From the IMG/VR virus record IMGVR_UViG_3300031910_000015, positions 1 to 44,836 of that record: a DNA stretch of 44,836 nucleotides; one strand, 5' to 3'. A model generated the notes under the pieces. It had not been told where the DNA came from, made no database searches, and saw only the letters and a program-made list of their open reading frames with translations. Each line of letters begins with the position of its first letter. Positions within the stretch are counted from its first letter, which is position 1. The position numbers were made by a program, and so were the translations under genes. Shown here in pieces: positions 10,944 through 24,109 of the stretch. Source of the stretch: a virus. Taxonomy: Duplodnaviria > Caudoviricetes.

Positions 10944-12857
10944 CTACGCGCGGGCGCGAGGCTTGTTTCTGTGGGCGATTTGCCGGTGAACATCGAGAAC
11001 GATGTCGTTCAGGTTGCTCTTGAGGGCAGTTACACCCGCAATGTACTCCTCGACTGTGTTCAGCGACCTGTAGTAGAAGCAGCTGACCTGATGGAGCTTG
11101 TAAGCTCCGAGGATTCGATCGGTCAACTGCTCTTGATCGTCCGGGTTCCACGTCTCATCCATCACGTGGCAGGTATCCGCACGACCGAGGTCGATTGCCA
11201 CACCGCCGGCAGTCGTAGTCATGACGATCACTCTCGGGCCGTCACCAGATTGGAACGTGCGCTGGATCTCAGCCCGCTCGCCACGCTTGTTCGTGTCGCC
11301 GGTGAGCTTTAGACAGTCGATGCCTTGTTTAGGTAGCCAGTCCGCGATCATGTCCACCGTTCCCTTGAACTGGGACGCGATCACAGCTTGGCTATCACCG
11401 TCAGGATCGTCGGGATCAATCCCGGCTTCCTTTAGACGGTCGAGAAGGAACGGCAACTTGCCGCTGTCTTCGGTCGGACTCAGGTTGAGCACCATCTGTT
11501 TCCCGGTACCAGAGCAGTACCAGCACTCGTTGATGTCGTCGCGTTCCTTGTCCTTGCACCATTTGCAGGTCACTTCTTTCTCGATGACCAGCGAGTACGC
11601 ATTGGCGAATTGCTTCAACCGCAGATACTCGGTCAGGATGCAGTTGGACAGGAGGTGACGCTGCCCCTTGTCCGCCTCGACGTGGCCGATGACGAGTTCG
11701 GCAGCTTCCTCGAACTTGCGGTACTGTGCAGCCTGCGTCGGTGTCATTGGACACCACACGTCGATAGGTAGCTTCTTGGGCAGCTGCGGCAAGACTTCTT
11801 CACGGAGCCGACGCACCATGTACGGTGCATGGGCCGTGTAGAACTCTGCCTCACTACCCGGTTTCAGGCCATGAATCTCGCGGATAGTCTGTTGCCGTCC
11901 GCCTTTGACCCGAATCTGCTTCGTCTCGACGCGGAGCCACTGCTCAGCCCATCGCCACTTTGAGGTAAACGACTTCGGGTACATCAGCTGTAGTGGAGCG
12001 AACAGCTTGATCGGCTTACCGCCAATCGGAGTGCCGCTCAGGAACCACTTGCGTTTCGCCTCTAGCTGCTTCACTGCTGCGAAGAACTGAGACTTCGTAT
12101 TGGACAAACCAGTCCGGTGGAACTCATCCACCGTAACGCTATTCCAGGCTTCCAACGTGAACACGTCCGTGTTCTGTCGCACCATATGAGGCGTCGTCAC
12201 GAGCCAGTATCCCCGCATGACCGCCATAGCTTCGGCAATCGAATCGGGCATATCGGCTCGGACGTTTTGAGGCGTTTCGCCCGAGTAAGTGAACACGGGC
12301 ATGCGCTGCCATCGCTCTAGCTCGTAGCGCCAGACTGTTTCCAGGCTGGTCTGCGGAGCGATTACGAGATGCGGGCCTTCATGAATCCCCGCCTCGTAGA
12401 CGGCACCAATGACCTCTAGCGTTTTCCCCAGACGCGGCTGATTGCCGTTGATCGCGGAAGTCGCTGCCATGAACTTGATGTCCGCTCGCTGATAGGGCCG
12501 ATCTGGCCATCCTGTAGTCTCACCACGGATGAACGCATCGAGCCCCGGCAGCAGACCGGGCATGTTCACTAGCACAGCATCGTCCGAAAGAACCATGCTC
12601 GCTAGCGATTGCTCCTGGCTAACGGCATCGCGACCCCAGGTGACTAGGTCACGACCGAGCAGGAGTTGATCACCGAACAGTTGCCGGAGCCGTCGAGCCG
12701 TCGCCAGGTCGAGTGGTACGAGCCATGCTGGCCCGCCTCGTTCTGGCGGCAGGAATCGACGCCCAGGAACTGTCTTGATGTCCCTCACTGTACCGGCATC
12801 GAACGAGAAAGTCAACCGTATCGCTTCGCCGACCTTCTCTGCCATAATCTGAGACAT
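10944..12857 (-). CDS. SNF2-family helicase
   Basis: PRLGKT, VDEFH, LSGTP, MVRRL, SGKL, GVAIDL, WNP..EQ..DR; start at MSQIM after AAGGAGGGTAC. Confidence 0.9.
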   Translation of the reverse strand: MSQIMAEKVGEAIRLTFSFDAGTVRDIKTVPGRRFLPPERGGPAWLVPLDLATARRLRQLFGDQLLLGRDLVTWGRDAVSQEQSLASMVLSDDAVLVNMPGLLPGLDAFIRGETTGWPDRPYQRADIKFMAATSAINGNQPRLGKTLEVIGAVYEAGIHEGPHLVIAPQTSLETVWRYELERWQRMPVFTYSGETPQNVRADMPDSIAEAMAVMRGYWLVTTPHMVRQNTDVFTLEAWNSVTVDEFHRTGLSNTKSQFFAAVKQLEAKRKWFLSGTPIGGKPIKLFAPLQLMYPKSFTSKWRWAEQWLRVETKQIRVKGGRQQTIREIHGLKPGSEAEFYTAHAPYMVRRLREEVLPQLPKKLPIDVWCPMTPTQAAQYRKFEEAAELVIGHVEADKGQRHLLSNCILTEYLRLKQFANAYSLVIEKEVTCKWCKDKERDDINECWYCSGTGKQMVLNLSPTEDSGKLPFLLDRLKEAGIDPDDPDGDSQAVIASQFKGTVDMIADWLPKQGIDCLKLTGDTNKRGERAEIQRTFQSGDGPRVIVMTTTAGGVAIDLGRADTCHVMDETWNPDDQEQLTDRILGAYKLHQVSCFYYRSLNTVEEYIAGVTALKSNLNDIVLDVHRQIAHRNKPRARA

Positions 12858-12915
12858 GTACCCTCCTTTTCGTATACAGCTAGGGCTTTGTGTACTGGCC
12901 CCTAGCCAGTTGGAA

Positions 12916-13017
12916 CGGTGTCCCGCTCCTCCGAGAGCCACCGCGCGGAGGGTACAACAGACGCGATGACTCTCGGAGCAGCGGGGCGCGATAGGAGGAG
13001 CCTACCGCGCCACACCG
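12916..13017 (-). ncRNA. candidate three-way-junction antisense RNA or leader element with anti-SD loops
   Basis: Stems 12916-21/13012-17, 12922-27/12980-85, 12929-46/12961-78, 12986-95/13001-10; wobble pairs work on the minus strand; loops CUGUUGUACCCUCC and CUCCU. Confidence 0.55.
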
Positions 13018-13022
13018 CTCGC

Positions 13023-13349
13023 TCACTTGCCCCTCAGGGCAAGTCGCTGGGCTCTCGTCCGCGCCTTGATGACCGGCTTCTTGCTCCGAATCGCATCAAT
13101 TTGCTTCTGAGAGACACCCTTGATGGCTAGAACGCTCATTGTCGATACGGTACGCATGAACCCAAACCGACTATATCCGCCGCGAGGGTCAATAAACCGC
13201 TCGCTCCAGAATTGAATCAGCGGGTCTTTGCGCGTCCCGTGCTTCGTTTCGCCAGCCGGCAAGAACTGGTGGAACTTCTCGCACTTGTACTCGTCCACCG
13301 AATCGATGGACAGTTGGCCATCGTTGCTGAGTATCGAGGTTAGTACCAC
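13023..13349 (-). CDS. hypothetical protein (N-terminus may extend upstream)
   Basis: The frame continues upstream as TDEEIRQLIEGKTL with no ATG/GTG/TTG. Confidence 0.6.
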   Translation of the reverse strand: MVLTSILSNDGQLSIDSVDEYKCEKFHQFLPAGETKHGTRKDPLIQFWSERFIDPRGGYSRFGFMRTVSTMSVLAIKGVSQKQIDAIRSKKPVIKARTRAQRLALRGK

Positions 13350-13420
13350 CAGTGTCTTGCCTTCGATCAGCTGACGAATCTCCTCATCTGTACCAGGATG
13401 CGCTACTGTACCGACAAAGG

Positions 13421-13885
13421 CTAAGGGCGGCGCGACACCAGTTGGGCTCGCGTGCGATTCTTGGCCGGTGTCTTCTTGGCCGGTGTCTTCTTCGCAGCGG
13501 GCTTCTTGGCGGACGACTTCTTGGGCTCTGCCGGTGCATTCGGCGGACGCTTGCCGCGTCCGATGTAGCTCTCGTCCAGGTCGCCACCGGCCTCCTCATA
13601 CATCTGCCGGGCCGAGTTGATCGAGATGTCGGCACGAGCCGCGATCCGCTCCCAGCGCAGGTTCTGCTGGTCGCGAGCCTTCTTGACGTTGGCACCCGTC
13701 GCCTTGAACTTCAGGGACGGATCGGCCACCGGCTCCGCGTAGTACATCAGCTGGATCGCAGTGTTGCGACCCACCTTCATACCGGACTCGATGGCCTTGT
13801 ACACGTCGGCGTCTTTGTCGTCGCCGTCGAACTTGGCGACAATCTTCGCCGCCTTCTGGATCAAGCTCTCGTCGAGCTTGGCCAT
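13421..13885 (-). CDS. HTH DNA-binding protein with histone-H1-like PAKK tail
   Basis: LRWERIAARADISINSARQMY helix-turn-helix; tail KKPAAKKTPAKKTPAK. Confidence 0.7.
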   Translation of the reverse strand: MAKLDESLIQKAAKIVAKFDGDDKDADVYKAIESGMKVGRNTAIQLMYYAEPVADPSLKFKATGANVKKARDQQNLRWERIAARADISINSARQMYEEAGGDLDESYIGRGKRPPNAPAEPKKSSAKKPAAKKTPAKKTPAKNRTRAQLVSRRP

Positions 13886-14005
13886 GATACCCTCCTTCCG
13901 TGGATTTGTAACGACAGCCGAGGTAGAGTATACCTCATCAGCTGCCGGATGGCTAGGGGTAGCTCATCCAGGCCTCACCCGCGTTTACAGGTGAGACCTG
14001 CATTG

Positions 14006-14284
14006 CTACGCCACGAGCTTTAGCGCTGGAAATCGCCCCTTTATGCGCCGGTTGATGAACTGCCCGACGCTCGGAGCATACGCTGCGGCGACCGCTCGCT
14101 GTCTACTCACTCCAAAGTAGACGTAGGTGTTTCCGGTCAGGTACGTGACGTACATGTTGCCGAAAACATCCCAGCCGACTCGTCGGACGTTCGAGCTTTC
14201 AACGATGCGGAAGTTGACGAAAACATCCTGCGGTGGTCTACCCGGCAGGCGCACGGGGATGCTGTCATTCTTCGTCACCATCAT
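14006..14284 (-). CDS. KTSC domain protein
   Basis: VESSNVRRVGWD...YVYFGV......APSVGQFINRRIKGRF matches the KTSC pattern. Confidence 0.85.
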   Translation of the reverse strand: MMVTKNDSIPVRLPGRPPQDVFVNFRIVESSNVRRVGWDVFGNMYVTYLTGNTYVYFGVSRQRAVAAAYAPSVGQFINRRIKGRFPALKLVA

Positions 14285-14528
14285 CTTCACTTGGCTCTGC
14301 GATCCTTCGACCATAAACGACACGCTCCAGAAAGTCGGTCATATGCTGGAGACAGAATGCGAACACCAGTGGTTCATCCTCATCTTCTACTTCTAGGACA
14401 ATTCCCACAGTTCGGATGTGCTCGTCACAGTCGTCTTCACTCGGACGATTTTTGGCCATACATGCGTGGCCCCAAGTGTCGATCAGTACACCAACCTGCG
14501 CGAACTGATCTGGATCGACATGCGCCAA
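14265..14528 (-). CDS. hypothetical Cys/His-containing protein
   Basis: TTG start right after the start-associated motif. Confidence 0.6.
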   Translation of the reverse strand: MAHVDPDQFAQVGVLIDTWGHACMAKNRPSEDDCDEHIRTVGIVLEVEDEDEPLVFAFCLQHMTDFLERVVYGRRIAEPSEDDGDEE

Positions 14529-14595
14529 AGTGTACCCTCCTTTCTTCGTTGTTGACCTTCCGAGCCCGTCTCCGTGACGAGACGGACTCGCGAGG

Positions 14596-14799
14596 TCAAG
14601 TGATGACCTTGTTCGCCTTCAGTAGCTGAATGATCGTGCTCCGGTCGGCGTTGATCCCGCCGGTACGAGCTAGCCACATTGTGTAGTCGATGATCTCGCC
14701 GCGATTCTTGAACTCGGCAGAGAAAATCTCCTTGTTGGTCGCCGTCTTGACGGTGATGACGTTGCCAGACCTCGTTACTTGTAAGTCGAGCTTTGCCAT
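14596..14799 (-). CDS. hypothetical protein
   Basis: Starts immediately after the DUF6011 stop codon. Confidence 0.65.
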   Translation of the reverse strand: MAKLDLQVTRSGNVITVKTATNKEIFSAEFKNRGEIIDYTMWLARTGGINADRSTIIQLLKANKVIT

Positions 14800-15342
14800 C
14801 TACCACCCGGCACCTTGTGCGCAGATCGGGCCGATGCCACGAGCGCGAGAATCAGCATCGGTCAGAGTGCGGCCACAGATGCCGCACTTGCCAAGCTCGC
14901 GCCCGAAGCGCATGCTGGCTTCCTTTGGATTCTCGGCGATCTTGTCGAGGATGAACTTCTTCGACTCCTTGTTGCGAATCGGATGAAGCTCATCGCTCGC
15001 GCGAACGCTGAGGAATGTCCAGCCTGACCATTTGCCCGAACTCGGGCGATCCACGTGGTAGAACTGGAGCACACCTTGCTCGTTCTCGACTGCGTAGCGT
15101 CCCGCCGGCACCATGGGCCACTGATCAGCCCGGATCACCTGACGCTTCGGTAGCAGCTTCATGGCGTCGATGACGCGCGAGGCTTGCTCCCGATTGATCT
15201 GCGTGTTCTCCTCGGTGTCACCGAGCTTCTCATCGAGCCACTGCTGCTGCTCTTCCGAGATGACACGCTGAGCCATCAGGTCTTTGATCCAGATGATCTG
15301 CGGCGTCGTGGCGGGCTTGTCTTTGTGCACGACTTCCGTCAT
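14800..15342 (-). CDS. DUF6011 domain protein
   Basis: C-terminal CGICGRTLTDADSRARGIGPICA. Confidence 0.8.
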   Translation of the reverse strand: MTEVVHKDKPATTPQIIWIKDLMAQRVISEEQQQWLDEKLGDTEENTQINREQASRVIDAMKLLPKRQVIRADQWPMVPAGRYAVENEQGVLQFYHVDRPSSGKWSGWTFLSVRASDELHPIRNKESKKFILDKIAENPKEASMRFGRELGKCGICGRTLTDADSRARGIGPICAQGAGW

Positions 15343-15417
15343 ACTGTACCCTCCTTCCTGGTCAGGAGCATATGCTCCCGCACCTACCCCGACCGCAGTG
15401 GGGTAGGAACGGCAGCA

Positions 15418-15771
15418 TTACTTCTTCTTGCTGCTGCGCTTGAACGTACTCGGTCGCTTCTTGGACTCTTCAACCGGAGTGCTAGACCACTTCTGGAGTT
15501 TCTTCGTAGGCCCAACCTCAACCTGGATCGAAGCCATCGGTAATCTGCCGAGTACGGGCTTGACGAGCAAGAACTCGTTGCCGCGCTTGTGCTCGATGGT
15601 GAACTCGCGTTCCTTGATCACCACCTTGCGCTCACCTTTCTTGAACGCGCGACGGATGATATTCTGACTCGCGACGGTGAGCAGATCGCCGCTGCTGAGC
15701 GTTGTATGCGTTGGTTTGCGCGATCTAGTCACGGCCGAAGCCTTGGGGCAGTTCAGCACCTTCGGCTTCAT
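15418..15771 (-). CDS. hypothetical basic protein (start uncertain)
   Basis: Fills the operon gap; Lys-rich C-terminus. Confidence 0.55.
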   Translation of the reverse strand: MKPKVLNCPKASAVTRSRKPTHTTLSSGDLLTVASQNIIRRAFKKGERKVVIKEREFTIEHKRGNEFLLVKPVLGRLPMASIQVEVGPTKKLQKWSSTPVEESKKRPSTFKRSSKKK

Positions 15772-16048
15772 CGAGTACCGATTCGACCCCTTCCCAATTA
15801 CTCATGGGATCGTTAGCCATCGATTCGATGTCGATGTCCGCCACAGCGTTGAGCTTCTCACCCAACGCACTGCCCTGAAGATTCTCGGGCAGATTGTCGC
15901 GCCAGTCGATGTACTCTTGCTGGACTTCGGCTAGGTTCTGGAACGCGCTCGCGAGGTCGTCCTGATGCTCCTTGACGCCTTCGTACGCACTCCGAGCCTC
16001 TTGGATCGCGTCATTCCAACGCGCAGTCCGGCTCTTCTGCTTCGCCAT
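15725..16048 (-). CDS. hypothetical helical protein
   Basis: Start-associated motif; W.DNLPENLQGS..GE.L pattern. Confidence 0.7.
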   Translation of the reverse strand: MAKQKSRTARWNDAIQEARSAYEGVKEHQDDLASAFQNLAEVQQEYIDWRDNLPENLQGSALGEKLNAVADIDIESMANDPMSNWEGVESVLDEAEGAELPQGFGRD

Positions 16049-16107
16049 TGTACCCTCCTTTCGTAGTGCGGGATTGCACCGGAAGGCTCGCTTGCGCGAG
16101 CCAACCG

Positions 16108-16413
16108 CTACATCACGTCACTGTCGTCCATCGCCGGCATGTACTCGATCCGGCGGATCGGCGTCGGCTGCCAGACGGTGCCGACTTCCTTGTTCTCGGG
16201 CATCTTCCAGACGGTGCCCGTTCCTTGGCTCACGTAGAACTCCTGTCCAGCGCCATCGAAGCATGTCCAGCCTGCGTCCCAGCAATACATGCTAGGTTCG
16301 TACGGTTGGAACTCCTCGACCGTGAGCTTGGCGGTCACCCACTGGACTCGAACCGGAATCTGTCCGTTGTCGGACTCTTCCAATTCCAGGCCCCAGAGAT
16401 CAGTCTCGATCAC
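16108..16413 (-). CDS. hypothetical acidic protein
   Basis: Overlaps the end of the upstream gene. Confidence 0.55.
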   Translation of the reverse strand: MIETDLWGLELEESDNGQIPVRVQWVTAKLTVEEFQPYEPSMYCWDAGWTCFDGAGQEFYVSQGTGTVWKMPENKEVGTVWQPTPIRRIEYMPAMDDSDVM

Positions 16414-16795
16414 GTCGGTTCACTTCCATCAGTACCTTGCGGTACTTGGCGGTCGTCTGCATCCTGCCGTTGAGCCATCCGCGTCGCTTGTACTCAGCGA
16501 GTAGGATGGACGCGACCTTGGTATCGGAAGCGTGTCCGACATATAGGTCGATCAGATCGGTATTCTGCAAGCCCTCGGGGTTGAGAACGCCTCGGAGTAG
16601 CAGGTAGATTTGATACGCCGCCAACACATCCGTTTTCTTGCGGCCACACTGCAGGCCATAGTGCTCACGGACGAACTTGGCGATGCTACGACCGCTGGAG
16701 TGCTTCATACCGATGCACTCCAACCTGAGCGCTCCCAGCTGCGAGAGCATGAACCAAGCGCGGATTTGATCCGGCTGGTCTAGCATGATTTCCAT
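16400..16795 (-). CDS. hypothetical protein
   Basis: Start MEIML follows the start-associated motif. Confidence 0.7.
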   Translation of the reverse strand: MEIMLDQPDQIRAWFMLSQLGALRLECIGMKHSSGRSIAKFVREHYGLQCGRKKTDVLAAYQIYLLLRGVLNPEGLQNTDLIDLYVGHASDTKVASILLAEYKRRGWLNGRMQTTAKYRKVLMEVNRRDRD

Positions 16796-16859
16796 GTACC
16801 CTCCTTTCAATTGTACTCGAATGAGCACAAGCCGAGACGGTCATTGTCCCGGCTTCTAC

Positions 16860-17024
16860 TCACTTGACGATGATCTGAACGGTCTTGCCAGCGAGTAGCT
16901 CGTCGATGGCGACGGCGATCTCATTCATCGAGATGCCTTCTTCAGACTTGAAGCCGTAGTCGTTTGACATCAGCTTCAGAGTCATCGACATCGCGCGCAG
17001 CTTATCACCGTCTTTCTTGGTCAC
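16860..17024 (-). CDS. 54-aa hypothetical protein (not in the ORF track)
   Basis: GTGA overlap with the DUF2786 stop; MTKKDGDKLRAM...QIIVK. Confidence 0.6.
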   Translation of the reverse strand: MTKKDGDKLRAMSMTLKLMSNDYGFKSEEGISMNEIAVAIDELLAGKTVQIIVK

Positions 17025-17995
17025 TTCTCGATCCCCTTTCTGCTACCGGGCATCGTGGAGCCGCGAGTCTCGATGCGAGCTTCGGCGCCAGCCTGACCAC
17101 CCTTGGCCATCGACGCCCAGTTGACCGCTCGGGTGTCCGCGCGACCGCGTACCGGCTTGCGCTTGTCCTTGCAAGCTCGGCATTGACAGCCTTGTTCGTG
17201 CGGACGAAGATCGCCGAACATGTCGTACATCGCTTCGCGGGCGATGTCACGCGCGTCCCTGAGCGCCGGCAGAAGGCTTCCAGTTGCTGCCTCCTGCTCG
17301 CCGCGCATAGCGCGCAGCCGCTCTTGGATCTTGTAGGTGTATCCCCAGGCGAAGTTCCGTTGGTGCGTCTCGGGGTTGGTCTGCTTCACTGGTTCGATGC
17401 CCTGACGCTCACACTCGCGCCGGTACATCTTCACCCAGCTTCCCTTGACGGTGGACGGGCCGGTGATGGCATCCAGCTGTCCAGACCAGTTCGCGATCTG
17501 AACCCAAGACATTCCGGCCTCCTTGCCGCGCGTGATGTTCTGCGCTAGCGTGAGGTCGGGGTTGAACTTCGGCTGGGTCTTGTCCACCATCTGCAGGTAG
17601 AGACTCGTGAACAGCATGTTCGCGTAGTTGAGGTCGCTGCTCAGGCCGAACACCGGCATCTTGTACCGGCTATCGCCTTCACCTTGACCCGACGCGAGCT
17701 TGCTGGTCGCGATCACGCAGGAGCAGTGAGACATGATCGAAGCGAACAACGACCACAGCTGCTCATGGATCGGTGAACGGAAGTACCAGCCGAAGTCCAT
17801 TTCGTGCATCTCGGGCTTCAGAGCGCTCGTGTCGCCGCGTTGCCTCGCCTCCCATTCCTCGATGGCGTACTTCGCCATCATGTCGTCGGCGCGACGGAGA
17901 CATTGCTCACGTTCATGCTCGAACTCGGTTGACTCAGCACGGGCGATCAAAGCCTGGACTTTCCTCAGGATGTCATCCCGATCAAACTTACTCAT
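17021..17995 (-). CDS. DUF2786 domain protein
   Basis: ILRKVQALIARAEST..EHE......A..MMAKYAI N-terminus; start-associated motif. Confidence 0.8.
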   Translation of the reverse strand: MSKFDRDDILRKVQALIARAESTEFEHEREQCLRRADDMMAKYAIEEWEARQRGDTSALKPEMHEMDFGWYFRSPIHEQLWSLFASIMSHCSCVIATSKLASGQGEGDSRYKMPVFGLSSDLNYANMLFTSLYLQMVDKTQPKFNPDLTLAQNITRGKEAGMSWVQIANWSGQLDAITGPSTVKGSWVKMYRRECERQGIEPVKQTNPETHQRNFAWGYTYKIQERLRAMRGEQEAATGSLLPALRDARDIAREAMYDMFGDLRPHEQGCQCRACKDKRKPVRGRADTRAVNWASMAKGGQAGAEARIETRGSTMPGSRKGIEK

Positions 17996-18071
17996 GTACC
18001 CTCCTTTCGTGGTGTCCGGATGAACACCGTGCCCCGCGCGGGGAGAGTATGGCGCGGGACACGCTGGCCAA

Positions 18072-18332
18072 TTACGGACTTGGCCGACCTTTGTACGGAT
18101 GAGCGAGGTCTTCACTGAAGTCTGGCGGCAGATACGTGCCTTTGACGGGCTCGATGTGCCAGATCCATTTCTTCGCTTGGTCGAACACCGATGATGCTTC
18201 AAACGCATCGATGAACTCCATTGCATCGACGCTGTCATCGAGCACCTTGACTATTTCGATGCCGGCGAATGGATCCGTGGCATGTGACGATTCAGGATTG
18301 ATTTCCGGCCTGAACAACATGATGACCTGCAT
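18072..18332 (-). CDS. hypothetical protein
   Basis: Start-associated motif. Confidence 0.65.
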   Translation of the reverse strand: MQVIMLFRPEINPESSHATDPFAGIEIVKVLDDSVDAMEFIDAFEASSVFDQAKKWIWHIEPVKGTYLPPDFSEDLAHPYKGRPSP

Positions 18333-18409
18333 CTATTTGTACCCTCCTTTCTAGTGACCTCATGGCCACTGACCTACGCTCCCAACCGAGAGGGAGCGCA
18401 AGCCACTGG

Positions 18410-18667
18410 TCACTCGACCAATTCCGCCTCGAAGCTCATGAGGCAAGTTGTGATCAGATCGTCGCCTACGTCATGTACGATGGCGAACCAGTCTGAGGTC
18501 TTGCCCAGACGTTCCAGTTCGTCTCTGAGTTCCCATGCCGTGGGCCCATCGTCGCCCCAGTCTTCATCCAGCGACTTGAAAACTGCGACCACCTCGACGA
18601 TTGGATCTGTGCCCATGGCCTCAGGGTCGATCACCCGTAGCTGATCGCCAGGGCGCGGTGTCTTCAT
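18410..18667 (-). CDS. hypothetical acidic protein
   Basis: GAAGG upstream; operon packing. Confidence 0.6.
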   Translation of the reverse strand: MKTPRPGDQLRVIDPEAMGTDPIVEVVAVFKSLDEDWGDDGPTAWELRDELERLGKTSDWFAIVHDVGDDLITTCLMSFEAELVE

Positions 18668-18959
18668 CCTTCACCACCTCGACGTCATCGAACTGCCAGA
18701 TGAACTGAGGCTCAGGGTCGTACCATTCCGGAGCCGGAGTGTTGTTATGCGAGGCAAAATGATCCGTCTCGCCGTCCTTGAACCTGACGGTCAAGTTCGG
18801 CGGAATCATGTAGCCTTGGCCGGTGTCGTCATCGACGTCACCATCGCAGTCGGTGATGCTCTCGGCGATTCCTACTTGCTCGGGATCGTCACCGACCTTG
18901 ATGGTGTCGCCTACTTTGAATGGCGTCTCGCGCCAGTCCCAGTAGATGTCGTCACTCAC
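18621..18959 (-). CDS. hypothetical acidic protein
   Basis: GTG start (MSDDIYW) after GAGGAG. Confidence 0.6.
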   Translation of the reverse strand: MSDDIYWDWRETPFKVGDTIKVGDDPEQVGIAESITDCDGDVDDDTGQGYMIPPNLTVRFKDGETDHFASHNNTPAPEWYDPEPQFIWQFDDVEVVKDEDTAPWRSATGDRP

Positions 18960-19131
18960 TTTTGCGCTCCTCGCGCTCGACGATGAAGCTCGTTGCTCCG
19001 AGTTCCAGTGCCGCCTTCTGGAGCTTGGCGACCTGCGCATCGGTATGCTCGACACGCTTGATCATCACCTTCTCCGTGTCCGGTGGGACGATGGTCGGCC
19101 CTTGATTGAAGACGATAGTGATGTAGAACAT
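18952..19131 (-). CDS. 59-aa hypothetical protein (not in the ORF track)
   Basis: MFYITIVFNQGP...; start-associated motif. Confidence 0.65.
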   Translation of the reverse strand: MFYITIVFNQGPTIVPPDTEKVMIKRVEHTDAQVAKLQKAALELGATSFIVEREERKSE

Positions 19132-19323
19132 GTACCCTCCTTACGGTTTTGGTGACCAGATGATCACCGGGCCATCTCGCTGCCAGACTCGAACTGGCAT
19201 GGATCCTTACGAGATGACCCGCTGCTCACCTCTGTATGTTCACGAAGCAACCGGGCCTACATGGTTCACCCGGTCTTGCTCCACAGATCGAGCAAGGCAG
19301 CCTGATGTAGCCCTTGGGCTTGT

Positions 19324-19443
19324 TCACTGCCGTCGGTTGGTCTTTTTGATCTCTTTCTTCACTCTGTGCCAATGCTTCTCCTTGAATGAGAGGAAAAATC
19401 CGATGGAGATGACGGTGCCGACGATGTCGAGCACGTAGCTCAT
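19324..19443 (-). CDS. 39-aa single-TM peptide with basic tail (not in the ORF track)
   Basis: MSYVLDIVGTVISIGFFLSFKEKHWHRVKKEIKKTNRRQ; ATGA coupling. Confidence 0.55.
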   Translation of the reverse strand: MSYVLDIVGTVISIGFFLSFKEKHWHRVKKEIKKTNRRQ

Positions 19444-19682
19444 GTCTTCACCACCTTGTCAACCTGGATCCGAAAGCGGTTGCCTTCGGCGTCATCCACG
19501 ATGGCGATCATGCCGCTGCCTCGACTGCAGGCAGATACAGGCGTCAACGCCAATCCATGGCTGACGTAACCGGGGCTTGTCAGCAAGATCATCATTTGAG
19601 CTTCGGCATCTGTCTTGGGGACAAACGTCGGAAGATCAGACATGATCCGTGTAGCAAGCTCCTTGGCTTCCTGCTCTTCCAT
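19440..19682 (-). CDS. hypothetical protein
   Basis: MEEQEAK after the start-associated motif. Confidence 0.65.
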   Translation of the reverse strand: MEEQEAKELATRIMSDLPTFVPKTDAEAQMMILLTSPGYVSHGLALTPVSACSRGSGMIAIVDDAEGNRFRIQVDKVVKT

Positions 19683-19750
19683 GTACCCTCCTTTCATGGT
19701 GCTCTCATGAGCACCGGAACGCCCATCTCGGTTGATGGGCGAACCGCTAC

Positions 19751-20098
19751 TCATTGCATTGACAGAATGAAGATCTGCCATTCGGGCGGTTGTATGACGA
19801 TGATCGTGCCGCCCGGCTCGTAGTGCCACATCATGGCAAGCTCGGTGATGATGCGAGCCTCGGCTTCATCTTGCGCCCAGACATCGATTTCCTCGATGCT
19901 ACGGAACTCGATGCGCGGCCCATTCTCAGGGTCGCCTGGGTCATACGGGTCGTAGCCGATGTATGCTGTCCACGGCTTGCACCGATCCATGTAGGCGACG
20001 GACGCCTTGTCGATGAACTCGTAGCCGTTTTTGCCGGTCTGGATGATCTCGCAGATCGGCCTGCCGTCGATCTTCGGCTCTTGAGTCGGCTTGCTCAC
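19751..20098 (-). CDS. hypothetical protein
   Basis: GTGA coupling with the upstream gene. Confidence 0.6.
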   Translation of the reverse strand: MSKPTQEPKIDGRPICEIIQTGKNGYEFIDKASVAYMDRCKPWTAYIGYDPYDPGDPENGPRIEFRSIEEIDVWAQDEAEARIITELAMMWHYEPGGTIIVIQPPEWQIFILSMQ

Positions 20099-20385
20099 AG
20101 CGTTCGCCCCAGATGGTAAATGGCGCTGAACATCTGTTTGTCGTTCGCCAGACCCTTGTTCGGCAGATGCGAGCCCTCGATGACGTACCGAGGATCGAGC
20201 AGCTGATTGGGAATCGACCAGCGCCTGATGGTAGCGCCCATGGACTTTGCAATCCGAGCAACCGCGTCTCGATTGGCGCGATTGGCGTAGGACTGCTCCA
20301 TCGGCCCCCAGCCCGCTTGGCAGATGCGCTCCGCCAGCTTGAAAATGGTCTCGTCGTCCAAGACCACCTTGGCAAGGTTTTCCAT
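20095..20385 (-). CDS. hypothetical protein
   Basis: MENLAK after the start-associated motif. Confidence 0.65.
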   Translation of the reverse strand: MENLAKVVLDDETIFKLAERICQAGWGPMEQSYANRANRDAVARIAKSMGATIRRWSIPNQLLDPRYVIEGSHLPNKGLANDKQMFSAIYHLGRTL

Positions 20386-20455
20386 GTACCCTCCTTTTTG
20401 GTGTTGGCAGCGAATGCTACCCGAAGCCCGGACTCGGTTATCCGGGCAACGGCTA

Positions 20456-20722
20456 TCATCGGCTCCAGTAATTCGGCAAACTGCCGGCAACTGCCTGACA
20501 AGACTGGCGGTCATATTCATACATGCTCAGATCGCCTTGGTTCGTTGCTCGGTTGAGGATGTCCTCACAGTGTTGCTCGAATGCCGGGATGTTGAACTTC
20601 CCGGTTACATACCGAACCGTTGGGGTTGGTGTTGTCGCTTGCGTCGGCGTTGTCGCTTGGGCTACGTTGACGCCGATAGCTATGGCGAGTGCTGCCAATA
20701 TGATCGCAAACAGAACTTTCAT
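20456..20722 (-). CDS. small secreted protein with signal peptide, Thr/Pro linker and Cys pair
   Basis: MKVLFAIILAALAIAIGVNVAQA signal-peptide pattern; TTPTQATTPTPT linker. Confidence 0.7.
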   Translation of the reverse strand: MKVLFAIILAALAIAIGVNVAQATTPTQATTPTPTVRYVTGKFNIPAFEQHCEDILNRATNQGDLSMYEYDRQSCQAVAGSLPNYWSR

Positions 20723-20802
20723 GTACCCTCCTTCTGGGTGTTGTCTTCCGACCGGCTATGCGCTTTGCTGCGCACACCCGGCCGGGCAACTTTTGATTGC
20801 CC

Positions 20803-21224
20803 GACCCCCGAAAGGAGAGGGTACGTTGTCTCGTGTCACCCATTGTCGTTGTATTCCTGGCAACCTACGGTTGCTCTCATGGGCTCAAGACGGTTGGCCT
20901 TGACCGGAGGGCCATTATGCTCGGGCTCTTATTGACGTATGGGCCGTAGGCGTCATACGCGCGCACAACGAGCATGTGTTGACGTCTCTCGGTTGTACCG
21001 CCTAGTTCAGATTGGTACTACGCCAGGTTGACTTCGTTTGGAGATTTCTTCCCGTCAACCTACGCTCGTGTTGACGCGTGGGTCAGGTTTCCCAATCTTC
21101 CCGTTGGCCTCGCGATTGCCCAGCCGCCGGTCGGTACGCCAAAGGACGTTGCCTAACGACTGGATCCGATTGGTAGCTCTTTGGTTTTCTCTCCAACTAC
21201 CCGGCTGACCCTCTTTCGGGGGTC
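20803..21224 (-). ncRNA. candidate large structured RNA (~420 nt)
   Basis: No convincing ORF; ends 20803-14 and 21213-24 are a perfect 12-bp inverted repeat; many internal stems. Confidence 0.5.
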
Positions 21225-21477
21225 AACCGGCTAGATGGCCGTAGCAGCGTCTTTTGCCCTGCTGTACCCAAACGGCGGCTTCCGCGCGGCAAAGCTCCTT
21301 GGTGTCCTTGTCGCGGTAGTTGCACACGCCCTTTTCGTAGATGACGTAGGTCGCGGAGGATTGCTCCAGGGATGCCGGTCGAGATTGGCCTCCGTCCCGC
21401 AGCCTTTTGACGTTCACCGGCCGCTTTTTTGGGCTCTTAGTTGTACCCTCCGGACGTACCATGTCCTGTTTTTCCAT
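21223..21477 (-). CDS. hypothetical basic protein with C-terminal Cys/His cluster
   Basis: AAAGGAGGTGA SD; C..C..C..H. Confidence 0.65.
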   Translation of the reverse strand: MEKQDMVRPEGTTKSPKKRPVNVKRLRDGGQSRPASLEQSSATYVIYEKGVCNYRDKDTKELCRAEAAVWVQQGKRRCYGHLAG

Positions 21478-21540
21478 TTTGCCTCACCTCCTTTCTACCT
21501 TCCTTATTCTAGCGGATCGCTGTTGTTGACGGGAGTTGGG

Positions 21541-21580
21541 GTAATAGGGAGGGGCGGCTTTCGCCGCCCTACCCTATTGC
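21541..21580 (-). terminator. long GC hairpin with GAAA loop after the HTH gene (terminator or processing site)
   Basis: About 18-bp interrupted stem, gtaatagggaggggcggc/gccgccctaccctattgc. Confidence 0.5.
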
Positions 21581-21581
21581 C

Positions 21582-21860
21582 CTAGCTCCGGGCGAGGAGC
21601 GCGCCCGTCCCGAGCGCGGTAGTCCCCTTGCCGGTGTAGATGACGTCGCCCTTTTCGAGTTCGAGCTTCTTGACGCGCCCGACCGAGATGCCGTAGGCGA
21701 CCGCGATCCGCTCGTACCGGACGCCCTTGGCGCGGTGCTTCCGGACGCGCGAGGCAGTTGGGTTCTCGCCCGCGGGTACGCGGAGCGCCTTCGGTGAGCC
21801 CGACTCCAACTCGTCCTGGTAGAACGAGATGGGCAGTCGGATGACTTTCTTCTTGGCCAT
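21582..21860 (-). CDS. HTH DNA-binding protein, paralogue of 13421-13885
   Basis: VRYERIAVAYGISVGRVKKL..IYTGKG; AAGGAGG SD; TACAAT upstream at about 21939-44. Confidence 0.7.
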   Translation of the reverse strand: MAKKKVIRLPISFYQDELESGSPKALRVPAGENPTASRVRKHRAKGVRYERIAVAYGISVGRVKKLELEKGDVIYTGKGTTALGTGALLARS

Positions 21861-22156
21861 TTTGGCCTCCTTCCGGGCACGCGCGCGTCGCGCGGGCCCA
21901 TTCTCCGGCTCGGGGCTCATCCCCGGCCGCGTAAGTCAATTGTAGCGCGCGGCCGTGGGGCGTGGGTGCGAAGGGTGGAGTCGAGATCGGTGGGGTGGGG
22001 GCGGTGCGTCGCCTGAGGAGAGAACGCACGTGGGTGAGACCACACCGCGAACGCAGGCGGAGAGCCGAATCGCGACCGCGCGAGCCCATCCGCGACCTCG
22101 AAAAAGAAACTCTCGCGGGACTCCGGATGAACTAGTGGTCATCTCAATGGTATGCA

Positions 22157-22296
22157 CAATTTCATGCCTAAGCACACCCAATTCCTACAAAAAAAACACC
22201 AGATTTCCAGGAAAAACTCAATTTTCAGAAAATTTCACACAATTTTCCATTCGTTCGCCACAATTCGGCCCAATTCGGCCCAAAAATCCCCAATTC
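22157..22296. other. phased A/T tracts (predicted bent DNA) at the strand switch
   Basis: AATT or A-tracts about every 10 bp, including the tandem CAATTCGGCC x2 at 22261-22280. Confidence 0.75.
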
Positions 22297-22505
22297 CCTC
22301 GCGCGCGCGTACGGAGGGAAACGCCCGCCTCCCCATCCACCTCTCTAAGCATGAAAACGCACGTTTGTATCGCTCTACCTACGCGCGAAGCATAATTGAA
22401 TACGGTATACTCGCGTAGAGCCGAAGCACCGTGCACTTCGGCCCACCCGGCGCCACCACCGCCCGTGCGCCAGCCTCTCCCTACGCGCGAGACAAGGACA
22501 AAACA

Positions 22506-22817
22506 ATGAATGCTAAGGAGCGCAGCACCAAGAACATCGTCCAGAACGTGGTAAATGACGGCAACAAGCGCCTCGACGCAGCAGCCGCCAAGCTAGGTCT
22601 GCCCATGGATGGCAGCGGCCCAGCCCCAGATAGCAAGATTGCGCCCTGGCGCGATGAAGAGGAGCGCGAGACTATGTGTGCTGAGTATGAAGCCATGGTC
22701 GCCAGGTACATCTTCTTCGGATGGGAGCTACGGCGGCTGAGCAAGTTCCACCCGACGCCAGCCCAGCGTGCAGTTCGGCAGCTGATGCAGGAGCAGCAAG
22801 CGCAGCCGTCCGACTGA
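22506..22817 (+). CDS. hypothetical protein, first gene of the right arm
   Basis: AAGGA SD before MNAKERS. Confidence 0.65.
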   Translation: MNAKERSTKNIVQNVVNDGNKRLDAAAAKLGLPMDGSGPAPDSKIAPWRDEEERETMCAEYEAMVARYIFFGWELRRLSKFHPTPAQRAVRQLMQEQQAQPSD

Positions 22818-22850
22818 CGCGCTAGACTCGCGCTCGAAAGGAGGTGTGCT

Positions 22851-22994
22851 ATGCCAGCAAGAAGCCAAGCGCAGCGCCGCTGGGCCTACGGCGTCAAGGG
22901 CGCCAAGTGGGCCCGCAGACACCACTTCAATAACAAGGGCAAGCTGCCGGCGCGCGTAAAGAAGCGCAAAACAACTAGAAGGAGACGCAAGTAA
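22851..22994 (+). CDS. 47-aa highly basic protein (not in the ORF track)
   Basis: AAAGGAGGTG SD; MPARSQAQRRWAYG...LPARVKKRKTTRRRRK; TAATG coupling. Confidence 0.7.
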   Translation: MPARSQAQRRWAYGVKGAKWARRHHFNNKGKLPARVKKRKTTRRRRK

Positions 22995-23809
22995 TGCCAT
23001 ACAACCGCTTCCGAGCGCTGGGCGCGTTCGTGTACACGGCCGAAAACCTGACCGATGCCCAGCTGAACAGCTTCCGGGCCATTGGCGGCAGCTGGATCTG
23101 TCCTGTGATCTACGGCGACGACGCGGCAGGCCCCTGGAATGTCAAGAACCTGACCAGGCTACAGAATCGAGCCCAAACCATCGGGCTCGAAGTCGCCGGT
23201 TGGTTCAACGTCACGAACGACAAGCCAGTCGGCACGGACGTGACCAACATCGCCAAGATCGTCAAGAACTACCATCTTCCACTAGCTATCGTGGATGCGG
23301 AACTCGCGTACCAGTACCCAGCGCCAGGCTGCATGGTGCTGCCGGAGTTGATGCAAAAGCTCCGCGCCCAGCTGCCAACGACAGACCTGATGCTCTCCTC
23401 TCTCGGCCCGAATGACGCCTACATCTACAACGGCAAGACGCTGACGCCCCAAAGGAGTATGTACGACCTCGGCTGGCGCCACGCGCCGCAGTGGTACAGC
23501 GGCTACTACAACCGAGACGGCAACACCACTCCGCAGGCGCGCATGAAGTGGCTAAAGGAGAATGCCTCCAAGAACGAGAACATCCGCGACGCAACAGCAC
23601 CGAACGGCAGAGGCCTGCCGCTCAGCTACATCCACCCGACGACCGAGGCCACCGGGATGGAGAACAGTAACCTCCAGCAAGAATTGGAGGACATCAAACA
23701 GAGCCAGCTTTACGGCATGACGGCCGGGATCAGCTACTACACGCTGGAGAAGGCACCGCCGTCCGACATGCAGCTTCTACGCAAGTACAAGGGGGTGCTG
23801 TACATTTGA
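22994..23809 (+). CDS. putative glycoside-hydrolase-like TIM-barrel protein (possible endolysin)
   Basis: GLEVAGW, IVDAE, APQWY, GISYY motifs resemble GH25/GH18-like barrels. Confidence 0.5.
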   Translation: MPYNRFRALGAFVYTAENLTDAQLNSFRAIGGSWICPVIYGDDAAGPWNVKNLTRLQNRAQTIGLEVAGWFNVTNDKPVGTDVTNIAKIVKNYHLPLAIVDAELAYQYPAPGCMVLPELMQKLRAQLPTTDLMLSSLGPNDAYIYNGKTLTPQRSMYDLGWRHAPQWYSGYYNRDGNTTPQARMKWLKENASKNENIRDATAPNGRGLPLSYIHPTTEATGMENSNLQQELEDIKQSQLYGMTAGISYYTLEKAPPSDMQLLRKYKGVLYI

Positions 23810-24022: not shown

Positions 24023-24109
24023 TCGACCCGCTCGGCTCAACGGGCAAGTGGTACCCTCCGGGGTGGGAGTCGTGAAGATGGGTTCCGGCTCCCACCCCAC
24101 CGGCAACGA

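Follow-up and report, generated by a model that had tools for sequence, protein, structure and literature searches.

Does the gap between two genes of a soil phage hold a functional RNA, a mobile insertion or neither? In the window, by which we mean the whole 44,836-nt stretch of virus record IMGVR_UViG_3300031910_000015, a non-coding gap on the minus strand (21222-20723) separates the TGA of an 84-aa gene (21225-21223) from the next ATG (20722). A preliminary description had proposed a large ncRNA of the phage or a riboswitch-like leader in control of the early operon, with a MITE-like insertion as the alternative. On balance we lean, if lightly, towards the following answer: the gap specifies a conserved base-paired ncRNA and no mobile insert, and its last ~105 bases are predicted to fold an anti-Shine-Dalgarno stretch onto the ribosome site of the next gene, which would block translation until opened. 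Table 1 lists the features of the locus.

Table 1. Positions of the RNA, its parts and its neighbours in the window.
Feature	Position	Strand	Remarks
Long GAAA-loop hairpin	21532..21589	minus	directly 3' of small HTH gene; terminator-like, without U tract
Conserved GATnnGnTAnAAT box	21506..21518	minus	candidate -10 promoter element for the RNA-carrying transcript
84-aa gene	21223..21477	minus	unknown family; type-A clade only
Hairpin P0	21202..21229	minus	GAAA loop; contains 84-aa gene stop codon; 3/10 pairs changed on both sides
Type-A RNA body	20827..21201	minus	P1 21201-21172; P2 21168-21111; multi-branch domain 21109-20896; P4 20891-20828
Shared 3' module	20723..20826	minus	anti-Shine-Dalgarno stretch, hairpins Pa and Pb, Shine-Dalgarno/start tag
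3' arm of 12-nt inverted repeat	20803..20814	minus	inside invariant anti-Shine-Dalgarno block
88-aa protein gene	20456..20722	minus	first start-tagged gene; N-terminus signal-peptide-like (by eye)
Second lock, before SNF2 gene	12858..12955	minus	GUACCCUCC (12955-12947) predicted to pair with GGAGGGUAC tag (12866-12858)

Five relatives were compared, and the distinct sequences number three for type A (the window, L085 and L086) and two for type B; the window also has a 99.9%-identical twin. All type-A and type-B sequences come from soil metagenomes and are related to each other. Domain families DUF2786, DUF6011 and KTSC occur in the genome. The host may be actinobacterial, a guess made only from these families, their usual distribution and the U-less hairpins.

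To characterize the gap, we compared its pattern of conservation with that of the adjoining gene. Invariant sites by phase were 0.77/0.72/0.77, without codon periodicity, and the gap carries 2- and 4-base indels, whereas the 84-aa gene shows a coding signature (0.74/0.75/0.42 by codon phase, gap-free). Three-way invariant positions amount to 374 of 500 (74.8%) in the gap, with 21 gap columns, and to a lower 160 of 252 (63.5%) in the gene. No reading frame in the gap is open across all three sequences, so the translation as small ORFs that the preliminary description had allowed for finds no backing: none is conserved. Homologues of the 84-aa protein (85-86 aa) are present in L085 and L086; it had no match in Pfam or PHROGs, and its Atlas scores were at chance level (0.81 or below).

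The gap also folds better than shuffled sequence, as the preliminary description had anticipated for a structured element: the interval described there gave a z of -2.8 when folded as the minus strand and of -3.3 as the plus strand, and for the whole gap it was -3.9 in the window and -4.2 and -5.0 in the relatives. Covariation was counted on MAFFT alignments. In type A, 18 of 145 predicted pairs have changes on both sides among the three distinct sequences, a conservative count since these alignments are not structure-aware; none of 500 shuffles reached it on all five measures, and slid controls gave 0-1. Such counts do not represent independent events, because only three type-A and two type-B distinct sequences, mutually related, contribute to them. 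Nine pairs with double changes fall in helices 2-20. Single-sequence tests do not separate the strands, the plus strand folding no worse than the minus. The sense strand scored -175.3 with 19 compensatory pairs and the antisense strand -163.2 with 13, and in the window row G-U accounts for 16 of the 145 pairs, which would be A-C on the opposite strand. Being non-coding, conserved beyond the neighbouring gene and marked by compensatory changes, the gap supports the reading as a large ncRNA or structured leader.

Within the type-A body, near-invariant blocks (27-28 of 30 columns) are interspersed with variable ones, and the variable parts, folded independently, adopt the same architecture in the three sequences. 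The global fold depends on the program used and only local helices are stable. Covariation lends no support to the closing helix, to the small alternative hairpin or to most of the long-range helices, all of them invariant and thus predicted only. Among five internal stems named earlier, AGGUUGAC/GUCAACCU and CGUAUG/CAUACG show double changes in the relatives (folds read by eye), while GGUAG/CUACC and GCAACC/GGUUGC are present but invariant and hence uninformative; ACGAGC/GCUCGU is not kept, GCUCG being paired with the downstream CGAGC in a pairing that co-varies.

The 3' module is the invariant core of the element and is found in all five distinct sequences of both clades. It consists of the anti-Shine-Dalgarno/anti-tag stretch GUACCCUCUCCUUUC (20824-20810), hairpins Pa (20802-20784) and Pb (20783-20750) and the Shine-Dalgarno/start tag AAGGAGGGUAC (20733-20723), and is predicted to form a three-way junction in which GUACCCUCUCCUUUC and AAGGAGGGUAC make an 11-12 bp closing helix around Pa and Pb, both of which co-vary (compensatory double changes in 8 of the 32 module pairs). 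Its energy is -56 to -68 kcal/mol, with z between -5.6 and -7.7, and each of the five module sequences has its Shine-Dalgarno site base-paired in the minimum-energy fold. In full-length type-A RNAs this lock is likewise the minimum-energy state (3/3), and a single-stranded Shine-Dalgarno site costs 8.9-9.7 kcal/mol. When the site is removed, the anti-Shine-Dalgarno core moves into a hairpin loop, predicted at 7 nt, in the minimum-energy fold of three of four sequences and in the centroid of the fourth. The module thus has the make-up of a ribosome-site-sequestering cis-regulatory leader, with an invariant closing helix and a predicted effect on translation.

Both reverse motifs noted in the preliminary description are present: GUACCCUC at 20824-20817 lies 93 nt before GGAGGGUAC at 20731-20723, and the SNF2 gene has the same arrangement (12955 and 12866, 89 nt apart). 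The SNF2 lock has a 10-bp closing helix in its minimum-energy fold and also occurs, with a different spacer, before the 86.6%-identical SNF2 gene of record G001.

In the type-B clade the 3' module is retained while the ~380-nt body is replaced, at the same genomic position, by an unrelated ~680-nt RNA in which 24 of 190 pairs are compensatory between the two sequences. Outside the module the two bodies share only the 8-mers GAGAAAAC and GAGAGCAA, by our estimate about a chance number, and a linking motif was therefore rejected. Because unrelated bodies precede the same module, one conserved ligand pocket is disfavoured. As for a riboswitch, the platform-like Shine-Dalgarno lock is there as a prediction, and known aptamer models gave no match.

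Upstream of the gap, the stem of the hairpin behind the HTH gene carries paired substitutions across five aligned sequences (alignment read by eye), and the columns of the GATnnGnTAnAAT box are invariant in 5/5 aligned sequences of both clades. As a sigma-70 scan called no promoter at this box, its role as a -10 element is putative. The RNA lies 3' of it and heads the tagged early genes, which is consistent with the early-operon leader proposed at the outset. We suggest that the RNA would be the long leader of the main early transcript, starting at this -10-like box 3' of the HTH-gene hairpin. During transcription the small hairpin would at first hold the anti-Shine-Dalgarno stretch in its loop, leaving ribosomes a short window; when the Shine-Dalgarno site emerges the lock, ~9-15 kcal/mol more stable, would form. 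Since the gene in the position of the 88-aa gene is not the same across relatives, the lock would gate entry to the whole block of tagged early genes, polarity being one possible route. What counts against the lock model is the difficulty of opening a structure of about -60 kcal/mol. Opening would need an active step; we would guess at RNase III-type cleavage within the stacked helices, or at a body-bound factor. The role of the body (380-680 nt) is the weakest step of the proposal, a simple lock giving no reason for it.

A precedent exists in the leader of the lambda N gene, which is structured and sequesters the ribosome site in an RNase III-sensitive manner, processing relieving the block. 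There too a long structured leader heads a phage early operon and hides the Shine-Dalgarno site of the first gene; the differences are that no nut or boxB-like elements were identified here, that the leader is 500-800 nt instead of about 200, and that RNase III cutting is in our case a supposition. Among large phage RNAs, some members of the GOLLD, ROOL and OLE families are carried by phages. The present RNA resembles these families in being a large (about 500-800 nt), intricately folded non-coding RNA (PMC12286853), but it does not match their Rfam models and is fused to a predicted ribosome-site lock within an operon.

Known families gave no further candidates. Rfam 15, which includes riboswitches, ribozymes, introns, C4, ROSE, GOLLD/ROOL/OLE, 6S, tmRNA and others, returned no match at gathering score in the whole window and none at E up to 10 in 20600-21500; in four relatives there was only a 24-bit chance match over the HTH gene, against a gathering score of 145. 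A model of the 3' module (R1) matched only the five distinct sequences of both clades in 748,117 bases searched. The element had no match in a phage collection, the 84-aa, 88-aa and 405-aa proteins had none in viral contigs, and the module pattern and the HTH protein profile both had none in species genomes; against viral contigs the HTH profile returned only the already known record, and a 20-nt body pattern matched a single unrelated contig over 34 nt only. Sequencing runs listed as containing the stretch number 24, all of them DNA soil metagenomes, and four that were examined yielded short identical contigs and no natural variants.

The locked sequence is also found elsewhere in the window. 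The start tag AAGGAGGGTAC occurs in 11 exact copies, all on the minus strand between 12.8 and 20.7 kb and none on the plus strand, each followed within 0-6 nt by a start codon, with ORF lengths from 59 to 400 or more aa; the locked 88-aa gene is the first of these 11 tagged early starts. The 9-mer GGAGGGTAC has 14 matches against 0.2 expected, and at 6 of 13 such sites a hairpin of the type GGTGnTC-loop-GAnCACC lies ~5 nt upstream (by eye). Start tags were not seen in 11 loci of more distant phages.

In copy number, position and single orientation the AAGGAGGGTAC tags correspond to the start-associated sequences (SAS) and extended SAS described for Cluster K mycobacteriophages and Cluster EF Microbacterium phages (PMC3203893, PMC7302621). 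In the excerpts available from these reports, SAS are asymmetric ~13-bp motifs with a Shine-Dalgarno core, present in about 10-19 copies a few bases before the starts of non-structural genes and in one orientation. The likeness, as far as those excerpts go, extends to an over-conserved asymmetric Shine-Dalgarno motif placed directly before the starts (mostly ATG) of about ten or more non-structural genes, to an inverted repeat just upstream at about half of the sites (here 6 of 13, as in extended SAS) and to rare reverse copies, as well as to a function that is unexplained, with the partner left open as RNA or protein (PMC3203893, PMC7302621). The term is rare in the full-text literature, and the published passages name no partner. 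The motif itself differs, being AAGGAGGGTAC here and GGGATAGGAGCCC and GGGAAAGGACCCC in the published excerpts, so that membership of one sequence family was rejected and the two are analogous only. Three further differences concern structure. Both reverse copies here lie 89-93 nt upstream of a tag with which they are predicted to pair as RNA; one of them sits in a large conserved structured RNA, of which the excerpts of PMC3203893 and PMC7302621 have no counterpart; and the arms pair here, unlike in the Cluster K report as excerpted.

These tags raise the possibility that the module also acts in trans. If processing or termination freed it before the Shine-Dalgarno site, it would show GUACCCUC[UCCUUUC] and might pair with the GAAAGGAGGGUAC tags of the 11 early genes, lowering the set together, with the cis lock as its self-masked form. 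We regard this as unlikely, and give the same low standing to the wider view that the RNA would be the partner of the phage's start tags, two body types being built on one anti-tag module that would first be a cis lock and then, after processing, mask all tagged early ribosome sites. The uniform strand and placement of the 11 tags and the excess of GGAGGGTAC speak for it, and GUAC is invariant in the tags; to our knowledge, GUAC is not part of usual ribosome sites. GUACCC is moreover invariant in the type-B module even though it finds no pairing partner in the Shine-Dalgarno site next to it (GGAGAGCAA), and for this reason a purely cis model falls short; the downstream genes of type B carry the full tag. 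The predicted 7-nt loop would present the anti-Shine-Dalgarno core when the Shine-Dalgarno site is missing, and tagged starts are among its best duplex partners (-23 to -28 kcal/mol, where the mean is -8.9 with an sd of 3.2), but untagged GC-rich sites score equally well in the same scan. In the minimum-energy fold of the full transcript, moreover, the anti-tag is cis-locked in all sequences, and the second reverse copy, at the SNF2 gene, is plainly a cis lock. Tag and anti-tag are identical across both clades, hence they offer no co-evolution signal to test. The literature allows for a partner of this kind, as it gives 'RNA or protein' as the options for such tags (PMC3203893).

An antisense precedent is the c4 RNA of phages P1 and P7, a processed small RNA that pairs with the ribosome site of a message. 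It too is an antisense element upstream of a target ribosome site in the same operon; the present RNA has no Rfam C4 match, and its pairing is predicted within one folded domain.

Processive antitermination is an improbable alternative, in which RNA polymerase would be bound by Pa and Pb, alone or together with the body, in the manner of HK022 put, allowing read-through of hairpin terminators in an early operon of more than 20 kb. RNAs of the put type bind the zinc-binding domain of polymerase beta-prime and suppress terminators. According to PMC9378689, put RNAs are ~70 nt long, consist of two stem-loops downstream of early promoters and act without protein. The module likewise shows two adjacent stem-loops with invariant bases and variable tips in what may be an RNA-only element; it lies just 3' of the promoter-like box conserved in both clades, where a long early operon on a single strand begins, and it is conserved whichever gene follows. 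The likeness is nevertheless one of two-hairpin layout and position, by description, and whereas put in the same excerpts acts on RNA polymerase, the hairpins here are enclosed by a Shine-Dalgarno-sequestering helix and follow a 380-680-nt body (PMC9378689). Pairing with the Shine-Dalgarno site and Pa fully accounts for the invariant block, and antitermination too leaves the body unexplained.

Several repeated motifs could point to a function of the DNA itself, be it as replication origin, as recombination joint or as a set of protein-binding sites, which we consider very unlikely. GTCAAC, with 7 copies in 860 bp, exceeds expectation ~8-fold, the type-B region is enriched in RRGCCMA (10/21 of its minus-strand copies), the conserved flanks could serve cassette exchange between body types, and the equal folding of the plus strand would suit a DNA element. 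Several GTCAAC copies, however, belong to the paired strands of a stem that co-varies; G+C stays level at 0.56-0.58, AT-rich repeats lying elsewhere (~22140-22330). The enrichment coming partly from stem strands and no AT-rich unwinding region being present, we set the iteron or origin reading aside. Compensatory changes and conserved G-U pairs fit a sense-strand RNA.

The lock reading also has to be set against the switch proposed in the preliminary description, in which the 5' end GACCCCCGAAAG-AGGGU would either fold locally into a hairpin or form a long-range helix with the anti-Shine-Dalgarno strand at the 3' end, hiding or freeing the ribosome site in a riboswitch-like manner. Its two structural elements are real: the 12-nt perfect inverted repeat is present (20803-20814 / 21213-21224), with 2 matches against 0.29 expected in a search allowing at most one mismatch (2 of 100 shuffles reached 2), and so is the local GAAA hairpin (21229-21202). 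In the window the long-range duplex of 12 perfect plus 5 bp reaches -30.9 kcal/mol, dominates the fold when the 5' hairpin is truncated and, with the Shine-Dalgarno site forced open, provides the most favourable of the remaining folds. It is absent from the minimum-energy fold once the whole 5' hairpin is included, though, and that alternative is less stable than the lock by 8.9 kcal/mol. Conservation of the 5' arm is lacking: the pairing is confined to the window and its twin, the duplex in L085 and L086 falls to about -18 kcal/mol, the level of background partners, and the type-B clade has no such arm. The 5' arm is instead the 5' strand of P0, which co-varies as a local hairpin. Such a switch therefore seems to us scarcely likely. 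The alternative state predicted in its place is one in which the anti-Shine-Dalgarno stretch is held in a local hairpin loop before the Shine-Dalgarno site is made.

A MITE-like insertion is barely credible despite the perfect 12-nt inverted repeat at both ends, since the element is single-copy in the record and was found in none of the 81 loci searched besides the window and its relatives, nor in the phage collection, while the 5' arm differs in relatives, the interior is conserved more than the neighbouring gene, and no empty site was found, the other clade having a different conserved RNA in this position.

Hiding a ribosome site, as the lock is predicted to do, is ordinary for a leader; what is unusual here is size, modularity and the link to start tags. 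The putative leader, of 500-800 nt, is conserved more than the neighbouring gene and has no Rfam 15 match. One invariant ~105-nt lock is combined, at one genomic position, with two large structured bodies that are unrelated to each other, and structural studies thereby gain two candidate families of large RNAs of soil phage origin. The predicted locked sequence is a private tag common to 11 early genes, and its only other reverse copy is the SNF2 lock, conserved in a second phage. Together, size, modularity and tag link lead to a testable RNA-pairing explanation of start-associated sequences. If the RNA were indeed the partner of the start tags, it would explain why these sequences are over-conserved, for which there has been no explanation since 2011.

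We compared the element with its relatives. A terminase search led to a 59,935-base record, L004 (= G001; terminase identity 93%), and the small upstream HTH protein led to four metagenome contigs, L083, L085, L086 and L088. L083 is 99.87% identical to the window over 1,550 bases; L085 (75.0%, 1,630 bases) and L086 (77.3%, 1,491 bases) are collinear with it across the 84-aa gene and the whole gap between this and the 88-aa gene. Near the element, L088 shares with the window only the HTH gene and 53 bases (20827-20775), and it also shares several downstream early-gene stretches. Since no other relative search added members, the comparison is limited to three distinct type-A sequences (the window with L083, L085, L086) and two sequences with a second body type, type B (L004, L088), all from soil metagenomes. 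In the three-way type-A alignment the 84-aa gene behaves as coding sequence, with invariant sites by codon phase of 0.74/0.75/0.42, 160 of 252 invariant in total and zero gaps. The gap lacks this pattern (0.77/0.72/0.77; 21 gap columns, including 2- and 4-base indels), and with 374 of 500 columns invariant its conservation exceeds that of the gene; blocks in which 27-28 of every 30 columns are invariant are interspersed with variable ones. Small translated ORFs, which the preliminary description had considered, are not a shared feature: no frame is open throughout all three sequences. These alignments indicate that the gap is non-coding and under selection. An Rfam 15 search of the element gave zero matches even at E up to 10, and a tRNA search found none.

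Folded as a single sequence, the interval first described (20803..21230) beats its shuffles by a moderate margin, with z -2.8 for the minus and -3.3 for the plus strand; for the whole gap z is -3.9. RNAalifold predicts 145 pairs for the three type-A sequences (16 of them G-U in the window), and 18 of the 145 change on both sides; the sequences behind this covariation are few and related, the majority of the long-range helices do not vary, and the global fold differs from run to run. On the RNAalifold structure 97.7% of cells pair, and the observed values were reached by 0 of 500 shuffles on any of five measures. As a control, sliding the partners by 1-3 columns reduced the compensatory pairs to 0-1. 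Alignment folding favored the sense strand (-175.3, 19 compensatory pairs) over the antisense strand (-163.2, 13 compensatory pairs). When the variable blocks were folded independently in each sequence, the same architecture appeared in different letters; for example, the distal hairpin UCGGA/UCCGA of L085 is GUCCU/AGGAC in L086. At least ten extra double changes missed by the MAFFT alignment were seen by eye in these folds, two of which back the previously proposed internal stem AGGUUGAC/GUCAACCU. GTCAAC is locally frequent, with 7 copies in 860 bases against ~0.9 per kb window-wide; in some of these copies the motif is one strand of a stem that co-varies.

All the sequence features listed in the preliminary description were found: the 12-nt perfect inverted repeat (2 matches against 0.29 expected, a number reached by 2 of 100 shuffles), the GAAA hairpin at the stop codon, and GUACCCUC 93 nt upstream of GGAGGGUAC, a pair that recurs before SNF2 89 nt apart. 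The comparison does not support the long-range switch proposed between the 5' and 3' ends, as the repeat's 5' arm differs in the relatives. Paired with the 3' strand, this arm forms a duplex of -30.9 kcal/mol in the window and about -18 in L085 and L086, no better than with other partners, and the arm forms part of the local hairpin P0, whose pairing is retained through three double changes. When P0 is complete, all three type-A RNAs reach minimum energy with a ribosome-site lock, in which an anti-Shine-Dalgarno stretch pairs with the Shine-Dalgarno/start tag of the next gene, and not with the long-range helix; the latter appears in the window only, with the Shine-Dalgarno site forced open, 8.9 kcal/mol higher. 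It was dominant in one whole-gap fold because that interval cut P0. The alternative of a MITE-like insert is excluded: the element is single-copy in the record, its ends are not conserved, and no empty-site allele was found in the relatives.

With a profile built from the whole element, L004 and L088 match only across its last ~100-125 positions, the 3' module, and GUACCCUCUCCUUUCGGGGGUCGGGC is invariant across the five distinct aligned sequences of both types. The module consensus fold is a three-way junction, its closing helix formed by the anti-Shine-Dalgarno stretch and the Shine-Dalgarno region and enclosing hairpins Pa and Pb; of its 32 pairs, 8 show compensatory changes, and most of these lie in Pb. 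Each module alone adopts this fold (-56 to -68 kcal/mol, z -5.6 to -7.7), and in the type-B modules the start codon is predicted to be paired too. Covariance model R1, run over 748,117 bases from related phage loci, found the module in these five sequences only. If the Shine-Dalgarno site is omitted, three of four minimum-energy folds place the anti-Shine-Dalgarno core UCCUUUC in the loop of a 6-bp hairpin, as does the centroid of the fourth sequence, so a real alternative pairing is predicted, but it is local. Which gene lies 3' of the module depends on the relative (for an 88-aa secreted-type protein, 35-aa membrane-type peptide or 74-aa Cys-rich protein), so the module goes with no single gene. 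Upstream of it, L004 and L088 lack the 84-aa gene and carry, after the HTH-gene hairpin, a stretch with nothing in common with the type-A body. This type-B region is 88% identical between the two, with single-base indels, has 24 of 190 predicted pairs compensatory (in two sequences only) and a fold z of -3.7, and an Rfam search of it returned no match. A conserved hairpin precedes both body types, as does GATnnGnTAnAAT, an invariant box and putative -10 promoter element.

The tag itself recurs. GGAGGGTAC occurs 14 times against 0.2 expected, and AAGGAGGGTAC has 11 copies, all on the minus strand at 12.8-20.7 kb (window 12858-20733), each 0-6 nt before a start codon. Six tag sites carry a small hairpin ~5 nt upstream, of the GGTGnTC-loop-GAnCACC type, and some tag-implied gene starts differ from the longest ORFs (e.g. 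SNF2 at 12857, the DUF2786 gene at 17995). Tags and hairpins fit the description given for start-associated sequences (SAS) and extended SAS (ESAS) of Cluster K mycobacteriophages and Cluster EF Microbacterium phages in PMC3203893 and PMC7302621, which leave the role of SAS and its partner ('RNA or protein') open. AAGGAGGGTAC is a private start tag analogous to these. On the minus strand GTACCCTC has two copies only, one in the module and one 89 nt before the SNF2 tag, where a 10-bp helix between the tag and its reverse copy, the anti-tag, is predicted over the ribosome site. The G001 SNF2 gene (86.6% identical) has the same predicted lock with a shorter spacer. Cis locks on tagged starts thus appear to be a recurring design in this phage group.

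The window record is ~75% complete (CheckV). The HTH gene probably starts at an internal ATG (21860) rather than at 21920, the former being common to all relatives aligned and preceded by a GGAAGGAGG ribosome site. Farther upstream, an AT-rich stretch is probably a divergent control region or origin; the sign of the AT skew flips near 21.9-22.0 kb rather than at 23.0 kb, and the minus-strand ORFs listed for 21936-23000 are possibly not genes.

Positions of the features discussed (window coordinates unless a record is named)
Feature	Position	Strand	Remark
Element (gap)	21222-20723	minus	
84-aa gene	21477-21223	minus	flanks element
88-aa gene	20722-20456	minus	flanks element; N-terminus looks like a signal peptide
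P0	21202-21229		
3' module	20723-20826		Pa 20802-20784, Pb 20783-20750
Type-B RNA candidate	L088 1240-1955; L004 470-1270	minus	same locus, ~680 nt, non-coding
AAGGAGGGTAC sites	20733, 20396, 19693, 19142, 18349, 18006, 16806, 16060, 15356, 14542, 12868	minus	
SNF2 lock	12858-12955; L094 3396-3459	minus (window)	kept in second phage, different spacer
Minus-strand genes	~1 to 21.9 kb	minus	MCM/Toprim helicase-primase, AAA_24 protein, PD-(D/E)XK nuclease, SNF2 helicase, DUF2786-, DUF6011-, KTSC-domain proteins
Structural genes	from ~23 kb	plus	M23 peptidase, Mu-type portal, capsid protein
AT-rich stretch	~22140-22330		GAAAATTG-like repeats; two short tandem arrays (22219-22247, 22261-22283)
GTCAAC copies	20666-21525		
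Strong hairpin GGGGTGGGAG...CTCCCACCCC	24051-24100; L085 ~730-780; G001 56076	minus (window)	then directly GGAGGGTAC, kept in these three phages; no gene start after

We favor a cis-acting lock as the mechanism. What the analysis shows is that the region is conserved and non-coding, that many of its helices co-vary, and that sequestration is predicted in each of the sequences. The RNA would be transcribed, from a putative start, as the main early transcript's long leader, and its 3' module would conceal the first tagged gene's ribosome site and reduce translation of that gene, through which it would likely gate the whole tagged block. The local UCCUUUC-loop hairpin would form first, during transcription, with a possible kinetic window, and the lock would have to be opened actively, through processing of the stack of closing helix and Pa or through a factor bound to the body, which may thereby have a role. 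Two observations have no explanation in the cis model: GUACCC is invariant in the type-B phages though the adjacent Shine-Dalgarno site is not paired with it, and the body is large. For these reasons we keep alive the reading in which the anti-tag acts in trans. Altogether, the element is a genuine non-coding RNA region, conserved and structured, without an Rfam 15 match; the terminal pairing first proposed and the MITE alternative find no support. According to the cis-lock model its functional core is a ribosome-site lock, common to two unrelated large leader RNAs and directed at a private start tag.
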